Source: a virus (taxonomy: Duplodnaviria > Heunggongvirae > Uroviricota > Caudoviricetes). From it: DNA of 39,465 nucleotides. The notes under the pieces were generated by a model. The model was given only the letters and a program-made list of their open reading frames with translations. It did no database searches and had not been told where the DNA came from. The position numbers were made by a program, and so were the translations under genes. This document shows positions 4,248 through 8,906 of this stretch, piece by piece. How positions within the stretch are numbered: position 1 is the first letter of the stretch; every line of letters starts with the position of its first letter. The stretch lies in IMG/VR virus record IMGVR_UViG_2526164598_000015; one strand, written 5' to 3'.

Positions 4248-4801
4248 TTTTACAAATGAACTTTGTTGATGCGGTGCCTGGTGCCTCCAGGTGACGTTAA
4301 CCAGTTAACAATTAACGCCGGATACAGAGAACCCACCCATAACACTGTTTTTGGTTTTAACTGTTCCGCGTGCGCTCAGCCGCATTCACCGCATCACAAA
4401 ACTCACTTTAAAAAGGGCGGCAGACCAGTCACGGAGTAAAACTGATACCGCCAAACGTCACCAGAAAATTGATAACAGAGGGCGTTGCAGCGGGGTTGTC
4501 ACTTAAGCGTATGGTCAACCTGACAACCCGGTGTCCTCAACGGGGAAGGAATAACCCCGCCATACTTACCGCCGCGCCATTTCGCGGAGTGCCACAACCG
4601 GAAGCGCACGGTCGACGAAAATTTAACGACAGGCTATCTATGAACCAGCTACCTCGCCGTGCGCTTTCGCGTTATGGTCTGACTTTTCAGGGAAATATCC
4701 TTTCAGTAAACTGTCAGTGCCGGATGCTCACCCGTGTCCGGCGCACGCACTCCACCTCACCCGTGGAGAACTCCTTAATCACCAACCCTCAGGAGGGTGA
4801 A

Positions 4802-5918: not shown

Positions 5919-6557
5919 TTAAATATCTTGTTGAATTTTAAAGCATACGCCCAATATGCAAGATAGATCATCCAGCATAATTGAAGGGTAGCGAGGATTC
6001 GTGGGGACTAAAAGAATATCCGGCCCTTCTATCTCCAGTTTACGAATGACAGGTGTTGTGGTCCCTTTGGGTAAGGCAAGGACAATATTTCCTGGTTGTA
6101 CGGTTCGATCGGGATCAACAAAAACTGTTGAACCATTTGGGATGGAAACTCCCCCACCAGATGTTGACATACTGTCACTCTCTAGAACAACTGCAAAGGT
6201 ATTGGCCGGGATTTCTCCGACAAGCTGCACACAAGAGGTTATTGAGGAATTTTTCATATAATCACTCCAGCTTGCTGCCTGCTGAAGTGATAGTAGCGGA
6301 ACCGTTTTTATCGGCGGTAAAGATAGATCAAGCGAATCACCTGTATTTAACTCTCCTCCATTAAGAAGCCAATTTTCGTTTACTTTCAATATCTTTGCCA
6401 GTGAACTTATGTAACGCGAGGACGGCGCTCCTCCACCGTTCATCCATTGACTTACGGAGCCTTTTGATGCGCCAGTGGCATTGACAAGGTCTTTGCCTTT
6501 CAGGTTTAGCGCATGCATACGTTGGGTTATGCGTTCAGATATTGTTTGCTTGCTCAT
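5919..6557 (-). CDS. cI: CI-like prophage repressor (N-terminal HTH, C-terminal S24 LexA-like peptidase domain)
   Basis: 212 aa; N-terminal HTH-type region (..GASKGSVSQWMNGG..); C-terminal Ser/Lys dyad context (..VVLESDSMS.. and ..PVIRKLE..); divergent from cro-like gene. Confidence 0.85.
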   Translation of the reverse strand: MSKQTISERITQRMHALNLKGKDLVNATGASKGSVSQWMNGGGAPSSRYISSLAKILKVNENWLLNGGELNTGDSLDLSLPPIKTVPLLSLQQAASWSDYMKNSSITSCVQLVGEIPANTFAVVLESDSMSTSGGGVSIPNGSTVFVDPDRTVQPGNIVLALPKGTTTPVIRKLEIEGPDILLVPTNPRYPSIMLDDLSCILGVCFKIQQDI

Positions 6558-6648
6558 GTTTTGATTTTAAAACACAGATGGTTTTGTTTCTTGACTTTCT
6601 TTGGTTTTGATTATTAAACTTTTGGCGTTCAGTTTTATGGAGCGACTC
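6558..6648. promoter_or_regulatory. Divergent operator/promoter region (oR with pRM/pR-like promoters)
   Basis: Three GTTTTG(A/T)T repeats at 6558, 6581, 6604 (23-bp periodicity, like tripartite lambdoid operators); TTGACT -35-like hexamer at 6591-6596; GGAG RBS before cro ATG. Confidence 0.5.
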
Positions 6649-6879
6649 ATGAAAAAATCAGAAGTATTAGGCTATTTTGGCGGAGTTGTTAAAACAGCCG
6701 CAGCTCTAGGAACGTCAAAAACCACAGTCAGCATGTGGGGGGAAGAGGTTCCGTGGAAATGGGCGTTGCTAATTCAGGCAGTCACTGCCGGGGCGCTCAA
6801 ATATGAGTTACACATACCGACGGTTGTCATTCCCGGTTCTGATCATAATCCGCCTTCTAACCAAGGGGGGGATTCATGA
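6649..6879 (+). CDS. Cro-like small HTH regulator
   Basis: 76 aa starting MKKSEVLGYFGGVVKTAAALGTSKTTVSMWG (HTH-like); divergent from cI; GGAG RBS 6 nt upstream of ATG 6649. Confidence 0.7.
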   Translation: MKKSEVLGYFGGVVKTAAALGTSKTTVSMWGEEVPWKWALLIQAVTAGALKYELHIPTVVIPGSDHNPPSNQGGDS

Positions 6880-7301
6880 AAATCAAGCATGAACACATCC
6901 GCATGGCGATGAATGCCTGGGCGCGTCCTGATGGCGAAAAAGTTCCAGCAGCTGGAATAACCCAGGCTTATTTTGAGTTGGGTATGACGTTCCCAGAACT
7001 GTATGACGACAGCCATCCGGAAGCCCTGGCTCGCAATACCCAGAAAATTTTCCGCTGGATAGAGAAAGACACCCCTGATGCAGTTGAAAAAATTCAGGCG
7101 TTGTTACCAGCGATCGAAAAGGCAATGCCACCTTTGCTGGTGGCCAGAATGCGCAGCCACAGTTCAGCTTATTTTCGGGAGCTGGTGGAGACGCGGGAGC
7201 GACTGGTGAGAGACGCTGATGATTTTGTCGCAGTGGCAATCGCCGGTTTCAATCAGATGAACCGTGGTGGCCCGGCAGGAAATGCTGTGGCAGTGCATTG
7301 A
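6876..7301 (+). CDS. CII-position regulator (possibly YdaT-like), function uncertain
   Basis: 141 aa; start overlaps cro stop (ATGA); position immediately after cro matches CII-type regulators; no verified motif. Confidence 0.35.
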   Translation: MKIKHEHIRMAMNAWARPDGEKVPAAGITQAYFELGMTFPELYDDSHPEALARNTQKIFRWIEKDTPDAVEKIQALLPAIEKAMPPLLVARMRSHSSAYFRELVETRERLVRDADDFVAVAIAGFNQMNRGGPAGNAVAVH

Positions 7302-7372
7302 GTGATAATAGCCATATCGAATCACTTCCGGCAACTCGTGAGTAAAAAGATTCGGTATCAGAAGAGGTGAGT

Positions 7373-8443
7373 ATGGCTAACGCCTGGCTCAGATTATGGC
7401 ATGACATGCCAAATGACCCTAAGTGGCGAACAATTGCCAGGGTGTCAGGGCAGTCAATTGCAACAGTGATGGCAGTGTATATCCACCTCCTGGTGAGCGC
7501 GTCACGAAATGTCACGCGAGGTCACATTGATGTCACGACAGAAGATTTGGCAAGTGCGCTCGACGTGACAGAAGAGGTAATTGATTCAATTTTGCAGACG
7601 ATGCAGGGGCGGGTACTTGATGGTGATTTAATCACTGGATGGGAAAAACGCCAGGTGCTTAAAGAGGACAACGGCAATATTTCGCAAACCGCAAAATCTC
7701 CTGCAGAGCGCAAGAGGGCGCAGCGAGAGAGGGAAAGAAAGCGGGAACAAAATGGCGATTGTCACGGCGCGTCACGAAATGTCACGCACATGTCACGACG
7801 AGTCACGACAGATAAAGATACAGATAAAGATACAGATCAAGAAGATCAAAACACTATGGTCCATGGCGTAAAAAACGCCACGAACCAGGCAGGGGATGTT
7901 CAGACCGTCAATCTTGGTCAGCCAGCAGGCACGACACCGGAAGCCGATTCAGCGTATGCGCTGAAAGCCGATTCGGGCGCTGTGCAGCAGGTGATGACCG
8001 CAAGGCCGGAGCAATCACACCAACTGCAGCAGCCTGAAGCCGATTCCGCCATTCAGCGGGAAGCCGATCGGGTAGTCCCGGAAAACACCGGGCAGCCTGT
8101 GAGACGAGTGGATTATCCGGATGTGTTCGAACAGGTCTGGCGGGAATACCCGTTGCGTGCTGGGGCAAACCCGAAGAAATCCGCTTTCAGTGCCTGGAAG
8201 GCCAGATTACGCGAGGGGGTGTCACCAGAGGCCATGCTGGATGGCGTGAGGCGTTACGCAAGATACCTTGCGGCTACCGGGAAAACGGGAACGGAATTTG
8301 TTCAGCGAGCGACGACGTTTTTTGGACCGGACCGGAATTTTGAAAACCCCTGGCTGCTCCCGGTAAGCGGCACGAACAACCAGCGTTGTGTGAATCATAT
8401 TTCTGAACCGGATACCGAAATTCCACCGGGCTTCAGGGGGTAA
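7373..8443 (+). CDS. Replication initiation protein (O-like, replisome organizer) with origin iterons inside the coding sequence
   Basis: ATG 7373 with AGAGGTGAG RBS; protein repeats (SRNVTRGHIDVTT / SRNVTHMSRRVTT) mirror DNA iterons; position after the immunity genes. Confidence 0.7.
   Translation: MANAWLRLWHDMPNDPKWRTIARVSGQSIATVMAVYIHLLVSASRNVTRGHIDVTTEDLASALDVTEEVIDSILQTMQGRVLDGDLITGWEKRQVLKEDNGNISQTAKSPAERKRAQRERERKREQNGDCHGASRNVTHMSRRVTTDKDTDKDTDQEDQNTMVHGVKNATNQAGDVQTVNLGQPAGTTPEADSAYALKADSGAVQQVMTARPEQSHQLQQPEADSAIQREADRVVPENTGQPVRRVDYPDVFEQVWREYPLRAGANPKKSAFSAWKARLREGVSPEAMLDGVRRYARYLAATGKTGTEFVQRATTFFGPDRNFENPWLLPVSGTNNQRCVNHISEPDTEIPPGFRG
7499..7538. repeat. Iteron cluster 1 (four GTCAC(G/A) repeats at about 10-11 bp spacing)
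   Basis: GTCACG at 7501, 7511, 7532 and GTCACA at 7521; inverted copy CGTGAC at 7562. Confidence 0.6.
7759..7834. repeat. Iteron cluster 2 (five GTCACG repeats) followed by GATAAAGATACA tandem repeat; candidate replication origin
   Basis: GTCACG at 7761, 7771, 7781, 7792, 7802 at helical-turn spacing, then two tandem GATAAAGATACA copies at 7811-7834. Confidence 0.6.
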
Positions 8444-8483
8444 GTGTTGATTTCTGGTCATGAGGTAATTTTCAGGAGGACTT

Positions 8484-8906
8484 GTGGCAAAAGTTTTTAC
8501 ACAAGAAGAGCGGGAAAAAATTAAAGGGCAGGTTGTTGAACTCGTACGCCAGAGTGGGCGCGAGACGTTACGACAACTGGAAACTAAAACTGGGGCAACA
8601 AGATATCTGATGAGCGTTCTGGCCAGAGAGCTGGTTGCCAGTGGCGATGTATACAACTCTGGTTACGGGTTATTCCCGTCTGAACAGGCGCGTAAGGACT
8701 GGCAAAATGCCCGTAAAAAGCTCTCAAGGGCAAAGCTGAAGAAACCATCTGCGGTTGATCCGGACCTTATCTGGTCATTACCTGACGGAGAAATACGTCG
8801 CTACGACAGGCGTCAGAACATAATCTGTCGCGAGTGCCGGAAGAGTGAGGTTATGCAGCGAGTGCTGGCGTTTTATCAGGGTAATTTTCAGGAGGTGATG
8901 GCGTGA
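8484..8906 (+). CDS. Hypothetical protein (140 aa), possible DNA-binding
   Basis: GTG start at 8484 with AGGAGG RBS; translationally coupled to next gene (GTGA overlap). Confidence 0.55.
   Translation: MAKVFTQEEREKIKGQVVELVRQSGRETLRQLETKTGATRYLMSVLARELVASGDVYNSGYGLFPSEQARKDWQNARKKLSRAKLKKPSAVDPDLIWSLPDGEIRRYDRRQNIICRECRKSEVMQRVLAFYQGNFQEVMA

Follow-up and report, generated by a model that had tools for sequence, protein, structure and literature searches.

In the virus record IMGVR_UViG_2526164598_000015, a stretch of 39,465 nucleotides of tailed-phage DNA (Caudoviricetes) whose full length we call the window, positions 7497-7887 are best read as a prophage replication origin that is bipartite and embedded in the gene of its own initiator, a reading to which we give, from sequence comparison, a probability of about 0.7. 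The gene (7373..8443, + strand) encodes 356 amino acids (aa), its ATG at 7373 being preceded by a GAGGTG ribosome-binding site. It contains two rows of a short DNA word, an A-rich tract of short repeats and a palindrome. The anatomy of this region, its conservation, the purifying selection on its DNA words and the concerted change of both rows are established.

Hexamer row 1 (7501..7537, + strand) carries GTCACG at 7501, 7511 and 7532 and GTCACA at 7521, spaced 10/10/11 base pairs (bp). A first-pass annotation, made by a model from the letters, had listed four GTCACG copies here; the four-site row stands, only three of its sites being exact. Hexamer row 2 (7761..7807, + strand) has, as described there, five exact GTCACG copies at helical-turn spacing (7761, 7771, 7781, 7792 and 7802; 10/10/11/10 bp). 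The inventory of repeats was nevertheless incomplete, as it overlooked a single inverted hexamer (7564..7569, - strand; top strand CGTGAC, within GACGTGACAGA) that lies 27 bp beyond the end of row 1 and 32 bp beyond the start of its last hexamer. Of the 25 GTCACG words in the 39.5-kb window, nine fall within 307 bp (0.19 expected; Poisson P = 9e-13), and rows 1 and 2 are the sole + strand chains of at least three hexamers at 9-12 bp spacing in the whole window.

All of these repeats lie inside the initiator coding sequence, as originally proposed. Row 1 begins 128 nucleotides (nt) into the gene and codes for aa 44-55, where helix 1 of a winged-helix domain ends and the loop leading to helix 2 follows; row 2 encodes aa 130-145, at the start of a disordered linker just past a conserved basic helix, and the A-rich tract behind it likewise codes for early linker residues. 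The repeated peptides had been read correctly as SRNVTRGHIDVTT (aa 44-56) and SRNVTHMSRRVTT (aa 134-146), and 21 nt are identical between the rows (7497-7517 = 7767-7787). As a spacing of 10-11 bp is no multiple of three, one hexamer is translated in three reading frames (S-R, V-T and G-H), and this “peptide repeat” is therefore secondary to the DNA repeat.

Directly after row 2 follows the A-rich tract (7808..7850), a candidate DNA-unwinding element, which consists of the 12-nt tandem repeat unit ACAGATAAAGAT in 2.9 copies (7808-7842), in agreement with the tandem repeat noted earlier at this place, and then GATCAAGAAGATCAAAAC. Among the 40-bp duplexes of the gene, the least stable one begins at 7811, four bases past the last row 2 hexamer; its free energy (dG) is -44.7, whereas the window averages -57.2 (99.4th percentile for the window). 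Nearly all homologues (see below) have (GATAAA)n or GATACA repeats after row 2, in 2 to ~10 units and even with degenerate hexamers, and across these genes the A-rich tract is the most widely conserved DNA feature after row 2. Two GATC sites (7835-7838 and 7844-7847) lie 9 bp apart in the tract, the next GATC being at 8066. A GATC also closes the GATAAA tract in the enterobacterial homologues L001, L003, L089, L096, L103 and L109 and is absent in the Bordetella and Acidovorax genes; a link of the GATC pair to Dam/SeqA, as at oriC, is possible. Two DnaA-related candidates were rejected, namely a DnaA-trio reading of the GAT repeats, whose strand and polarity do not fit by reasoning, and a DnaA-box-like TATATCCAC at 7478-7486, whose conservation is no more than the amino acids require.

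The tract is directly followed by an imperfect palindrome of 31 bp (7857..7887; TGGTCCATGGCG-TAAAAAA-CGCCACGAACCA) that folds as a single-stranded DNA hairpin with a dG of -8.7 (z = -3.9) and belongs to the start of the C-terminal module (C-module) of the window type. L001, L003 and Stx phage 75/02 have matching hairpins, whose z values run from -3.9 to -6.1 and which include one compensatory change (C-G to T-A). In the lambda origin, too, a palindrome adjoins the AT-rich tract, and the palindrome of the window may possibly act as a hairpin or cruciform element of the origin. As a universal feature the hairpin was rejected: it is significant in genes with the window-type C-module and in L100, L094, L086, L092 and L097, and not across the 21 loci scored.

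We compared the gene to about 46 homologous genes, made up of three metagenomic genes (47-55% identity), 44 species-level genome loci and cultured phages from Aeromonas, Pseudomonas, Ralstonia and cyanobacteria. The same hexamer occurs at least twice at both sites (gene nt ~117-180 and ~360-480) in 38 of the 46 genes, compared to 27 of 707 control segments (3.8%) drawn from the same loci. The rows of the homologues have 3-6 copies each at 10-11 bp spacing, and the two-row layout is found in Enterobacterales, Pseudomonas, Bordetella, Acidovorax, Aquitalea, Chromobacterium, Ralstonia phage Firinga, Aeromonas phage pAEv1818 and others. Judged from this comparison, the layout is ancient, and its conservation from Escherichia to Bordetella, Ralstonia and Pseudomonas argues for a stable bipartite design.

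The word itself differs between lineages, with GTCACG in at least 25 genes, GTAACG in seven, CGAACG in five and GCAACG in Ralstonia phage Firinga, and in every case its type is identical at both rows, so that both change together. At least five such concerted switches have taken place. Type switches are polyphyletic: the Erwinia locus L109 (GTCACG) is nested in the GTAACG subfamily of L002, L104 and L108, and the Marinobacter locus L114 (GTAACG) stands among GTCACG-like proteins. The inverted copy tracks the type as well, GACGTGACAG becoming GACGTTACAG in the GTAACG-type L108 by a synonymous Val change (GTG to GTT), and is kept in most GTCACG-type genes (Val65 codon GTG in 95%). In L109, from Erwinia phyllosphaerae, the hexamers overlap at 5-bp spacing (GTCACGTCACGTCACG) in 6 + 6 copies (gene nt 141-181 and 411-451); its protein is otherwise nearest to those of the GTAACG-type genes.

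Selection acts on the words themselves. Among the 22 GTCACG-type species-level genes, third positions are 0.9-1.0 conserved in hexamers and free in the spacers, the median conservation being 1.0 inside hexamers (n = 9) and 0.48 outside (n = 33; Mann-Whitney p = 7e-6). Invariant residues elsewhere in the domain use many codons in these genes, with a majority third base of 0.33-0.6. On this codon evidence, together with the three reading frames and the concerted type switches, the hexamers behave as selected DNA elements rather than as a protein repeat. A scan of viral contigs with protein alignment returned only 98-100% identical loci and was used for copy-number variation: of the 82 near-identical genes, 81 have hexamer counts of 4 + 5 and one has 4 + 4, and the A-rich tract varies from 4 to 6 units. 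Stretches identical between the two rows of a gene range from 8 nt (the hexamer only) up to 29-39 nt including spacers (L001 and L003), which points to recurrent sequence transfer between rows and offers a plausible route for the concerted type switches. The first-pass annotation had offered a bipartite origin or a duplication as alternatives, and each is partly right, since the layout is conserved across lineages and 17-39 nt are identical between the clusters.

In a pattern scan, GTCACG-N4-GTCACG-N4-GTCACG rows were present in at least 120 viral contigs (loci L143-L255); 139 of the 182 rows lie in or beside a detectable gene for the N-terminal domain (N-domain) of the initiator, and 43 rows (~27 loci) do not. 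About half of the loci without this domain have their rows in open reading frames (ORFs) of the same layout (L152, L176 and L224), in which a basic R..RER helix and SRDVT/SHATSR peptides are followed by purine-rich short repeats, and about half have them in non-coding DNA (L168, L207 and L219). The GTCACG motif may thus serve a wider superfamily.

The rows are inherited as part of a module. Where E. coli genomes match the gene only in part, the matches stop at gene nt 464 and 482, within the A-rich tract, and in most of the distant loci similarity ends right after it, which identifies the tract as the joint between an N-domain-plus-rows module and different C-modules. At least three such C-modules are joined to the N-domain and both rows (the window type, a type with the DnaT domain PF17948 and others). 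Stx phage 75/02 has its C-half in common with the window protein; its N-domain is unrelated and hexamer rows are absent, so that the rows follow the N-domain and not the C-module. In the E. coli gene P0020 (302 aa, 4 contigs), a deletion takes most of row 2, the A-rich tract and the palindrome and keeps the N- and C-domains; it probably marks an origin-less, replication-defective prophage.

By homology and synteny, the host gene is a phage replication initiator, as it had been called at first sight. Its protein matches the full-length profile of PHROG 3729 “replication initiation protein” (E = 2.8e-256, residues 1-356 on 1-356/356), a function name that is an annotation and not an experimental assignment; its NCBI cluster (5786 member sequences) is named “phage replisome organizer”; and the gene is placed in the early right operon, downstream of cro and a cII-like gene. 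An AlphaFold2 model has a confident N-domain of winged-helix layout (aa 1-97; predicted local distance difference test (pLDDT) 80-90), a basic helix (aa 110-126), a disordered linker (aa 128-245) and a helical C-domain (aa 248-305). A Foldseek search against the PDB gave no significant match, and a Pfam search found no family at E <= 0.01, among them neither PF06970 (RepA_N) nor PF07261 (DnaB_2). The protein is likely a remote relative of the replisome organizer N-terminal domain family, as suggested by sub-threshold profile matches to PF09681 (Phage_rep_org_N; 16.8 bits at a cut-off of 23.3, E = 0.007, residues 5-123 on 1-119/121), a family matched by 4 of 14 family members, and to TIGR01714 (16.2 bits at a cut-off of 49.8). 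PHROG 1701 “DnaD-like helicase loader” matches aa 122-356 (E = 1e-62). We rejected the label “DnaT-like”, as PF17948 is absent from the window protein and present only in the alternative C-halves found on the same N-domain (P0059, P0103, P0055 and pAEv1818); likeness to the DnaT C-terminus is confined to the last 24 residues (NCBIfam E = 1.4e-3; PDB 6aep E = 0.4). The disordered linker also contains PEADSA-type peptides, encoded by a 36-nt direct repeat (7937-7972 / 8033-8068, 75% identical, 96 nt apart), and the 324-aa homologues P0005 and P0016 are without exactly the 32-aa segment of this repeat.

An origin inside the initiator gene is a functional class whose principle is textbook. Because the anatomy matches that of the lambda, SPP1, TP901-1/Tuc2009 and pSK41 origins, we take the rows as putative binding sites of the initiator's own N-domain and the A-rich tract as the putative unwinding element. 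The lambda origin has iterons and an AT-rich tract mid-gene in O, and in lambda O and its Stx-phage variants, similar to the window, the repeats and the tract occupy the part of the gene that codes for a linker, which joins an origin-specific N-domain to a C-domain that recruits the helicase (PMC7466680). Both genes take up the same place within the early right operon. The comparison with lambda drawn by the first-pass annotation holds as one of function and not of family: the window protein is not an O homologue and has no Pfam match to Phage_rep_O, the lambda O family. Further differences are that the window has no P-like loader gene, that its repeats are 6-bp words once per helical turn whereas lambda iterons measure ~19 bp, and that another row lies 260-270 bp upstream, where the gene codes for the DNA-binding domain.

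In the staphylococcal RepA_N plasmid pSK41, the Rep boxes are central in rep and encode a dispensable linker of RepA, whose N- and C-terminal domains are modular (PMC5703833). The SPP1 origin (gp38/oriL) lies inside gene 38 (PMC6316719) and those of TP901-1 (ORF13) and Tuc2009 (Rep2009) lie in their own initiator genes (PMC8965321); each replisome organizer binds direct repeats in its own gene beside an AT-rich element (PMC6316719, PMC8965321), a likeness that would extend to the window if its initiator binds the rows. Downstream of them are loader or helicase genes, like in the relatives of the window gene. In contrast to the window, SPP1 and TP901-1 have a single mid-gene repeat cluster (gene nt ~362-449 in SPP1 and ~354-408 in TP901-1), the second gp38 site of SPP1 (oriR) is ~13 kb away and not in the same gene, the hosts of all three phages are Gram-positive, and hhalign gives SPP1 gp38 and TP901-1 ORF13 a probability of <1% against the window N-domain. 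Short repeats in two separate sets served by one initiator are known from P4 (ori and crr, both of which are needed) and from the SaPI origin, with initiators that are primase-helicases of unrelated families. The P4 crr is kilobases from ori, and SaPI repeats flank an AT-rich region in non-coding DNA. In the window, unlike in these systems, both sets are in the initiator's coding sequence and the AT-rich tract comes after the second set. None of the examined comparators has 6-bp words once per helical turn, a conserved second row in the DNA-binding-domain coding sequence or concerted switches, and the distinctive feature is the extra row within the coding sequence of the DNA-binding domain.

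As for the mechanism, the identity of the binder, looping, melting and helicase recruitment are the steps that we infer. Rightward early transcription after induction would lead to the synthesis of the initiator, whose N-terminal winged-helix domain would bind the GTCACG hexamers. With one hexamer per helical turn and a single orientation, the bound proteins would be aligned on one face of the DNA. Proteins on row 1 (and the inverted copy) and on row 2, 260-270 bp apart, could then associate with the intervening DNA looped or wrapped, and strain from this complex might open the adjacent A-rich tract (7808-7850). The simplest role of the extra row would be such a cooperative looped or wrapped complex over ~260-270 bp that helps the tract to open. 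The C-terminal module would recruit the replicative helicase, which, given a window without a loader gene, would have to come from the host, presumably as DnaB/DnaC used via the C-domain. On the opened strand, the palindrome (7857-7887) might form a hairpin.

Several points weigh against this reading. Binding, melting and origin activity are all deduced from comparison, and the membership of the protein in the named replisome organizer family falls, as judged from its profile score, below threshold (PF09681, 16.8 vs 23.3 bits). Aligned by hhalign with SPP1 gp38 and TP901-1 ORF13, the N-domain gave probabilities of 0.1-0.2%, that is no detectable similarity. Clear rows are missing in eight of the 46 homologues, and GTCACG rows occur in ~27 viral contigs with no N-domain detected. 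The helical phase between the rows gives a high Rayleigh statistic at every assumed pitch, as most genes share one offset, and a change of the pitch from 10.3 to 10.5 bp per turn is enough to flip the mean phase. Because row 1 overlaps the coding sequence of the N-domain, co-inheritance of site and protein is not independent evidence for the binder. Finally, the window has neither a helicase loader nor a helicase gene that could explain the recruitment of the helicase.

The main competing explanation takes row 2 and the A-rich tract alone as the origin and row 1 as a control element in the coding sequence, which could restrain firing by titrating or “handcuffing” the initiator, or could serve as a roadblock and reduce transcription of its own gene as protein accumulates. 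This would mirror the layout of lambda, SPP1 and pSK41 with one mid-gene repeat cluster each (PMC7466680; PMC5703833). In its favour are also the position of row 1 just 128 nt into the gene, cyanophage Cy-LDV1, where GCAACG is found at site 2 only, and the lack of any row-1-only gene among the 46 homologues. However, row 1 is conserved at least as strongly as row 2 and has the extra inverted copy in addition, and it agrees with row 2 in orientation, spacing and copy number, as expected of one joint complex. We consider this explanation unlikely, although it is the strongest competitor of the bipartite origin and a positive and a negative role of row 1 look alike by computation.

It is considerably less probable that the rows are bound by another factor, a host protein or a phage regulator, and serve transcription control, antitermination, packaging or partition. 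Short-repeat rows at helical spacing are also known from plasmid centromeres such as parC of R1, some viral contigs have GTCACG rows in non-coding DNA without a detectable N-domain gene, and the initiator is a putative binder of the rows. On the other hand, the flanking genes vary among homologues (YdaT-like, none or others), the rows have no constant partner except the N-domain, partition and packaging genes are absent from the neighbourhood, and scans of 6500-9000 with Rfam and for promoters and terminators yielded nothing convincing. A conserved host factor is moreover hard to reconcile with the hexamer type switching between close relatives in similar hosts (Erwinia L109 compared to Pantoea L104 and Enterobacter L108). 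That the repeats arose as a side effect of a repeated peptide or replication slippage, with no DNA function, is strongly disfavoured: although the encoded peptides look repeated (SRNVT...VTT twice) and the neighbouring GATA[AC]A tract varies in copy number (4 to 6 units), the hexamer is read in three frames and the peptide is thus not a true repeat, synonymous sites of the hexamers are frozen while spacers drift, 81 of 82 near-identical genes share the hexamer counts 4 + 5, and the concerted type switch includes synonymous Val codons (GTC vs GTA).

The prophage is lambdoid (Rac/Qin-like), and the putative bipartite origin forms part of its early right operon. Upstream of the initiator gene are an S24/helix-turn-helix CI-like repressor gene (5919-6557, - strand), a P22_Cro-type gene (6649-6879) and, in the cII position, a YdaT/cII-like gene (6876-7301; YdaT_toxin family, Pfam E = 6e-10; PHROG 163 “CII-like transcriptional activator”). 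A YdaT-family gene upstream of the initiator is kept in L001-L003 and pAEv1818 and not in Firinga and Cy-LDV1. Directly downstream of the initiator gene lies a DUF977/Ren-like gene (8484-8906; “Ren-like exclusion protein”), followed by a DUF4406 gene (8903-9199). The DUF977/Ren-like gene occupies the slot held in relatives by a DnaC-like loader or DnaB helicase gene: downstream of the initiator, L001-L003 and pAEv1818 have an IstB/DnaC-like gene, Firinga and Cy-LDV1 have a DnaB-like one, and in Pseudomonas phi1 the homologue is followed by a “P” gene. In the early right operon of the window (8400-16200), we found no loader, helicase or primase gene; its content includes a Q-like antiterminator, DUF6731, DUF968/HNH, RusA, DUF1133 and a DNA methylase. 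Two Q-type antiterminator-like genes are present in this one prophage (9753-10109 and 13990-14544; Phage_antitermQ and a DUF1133 gene with a weak Q match). Rfam matches comprise a DicF small RNA (4415-4466, - strand), a sok antitoxin RNA of a hok/sok module (11806-11980, + strand) and three transfer RNA (tRNA) genes (16223-16469, + strand); DicF, sok and tRNA genes are cargo typical of Rac/Qin-like prophages.

The initiator gene is present in 2535 of 5426 complete E. coli genomes (~47%), mostly labelled “hypothetical protein”, otherwise “phage replisome organizer”, and with no origin marked, and at 98-99.7% identity in cultured phages including Tritos, Evi, 204576 and vB_EcoS-689R5. Some GenBank records name it “DNA replication protein O”, by position only. 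Our literature searches found no description of this origin, with older subscription papers outside the search, so that an earlier description is possible; a paper on the Stx “Eru” replication region leaves iterons, DnaT and replisome organizers unmentioned (PMC8044961).

Each switch of the hexamer necessarily changes protein residues, because row 1 is in the loop before helix 2 and row 2 is just past the basic helix. GTCACG is read as GGT-CAC (Gly-His), whereas GTAACG and GCAACG are read as GGT-AAC or GGC-AAC (Gly-Asn). His prefers G:C and Asn prefers A:T pairs, and it is at just this base pair that the hexamer types differ. When L109 is compared to L002, L104 and L108, three of the ~5 L109-specific differences in the N-domain are encoded by hexamers (two His/Asn and one Ser/Leu). 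The binding site might encode its own reading head, the hexamer-encoded residues contacting the variable base and the site being the specificity determinant, an idea that we regard as a long shot. If it were true, specificity would be copied between rows by gene conversion (17-39 nt identical), and new origin specificities would evolve in a self-contained manner, leading to new incompatibility or to immunity to origin-based exclusion.

If the bipartite reading is correct, one of the commonest enterobacterial prophage replication modules, which is also found in Pseudomonas, Aeromonas and Ralstonia phages, would have a defined and easily testable origin. An origin at this place would account for the module recombining as a unit with its joint in the A-rich tract. 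Possible uses are origin-based prophage typing, predicting whether co-resident prophages cross-replicate or exclude each other, and small orthogonal replicons. With four natural hexamer types, each with matched rows, the family would provide a ready system for the evolution of initiator–origin specificity in which the site is locked in the reading frame of the binding domain.

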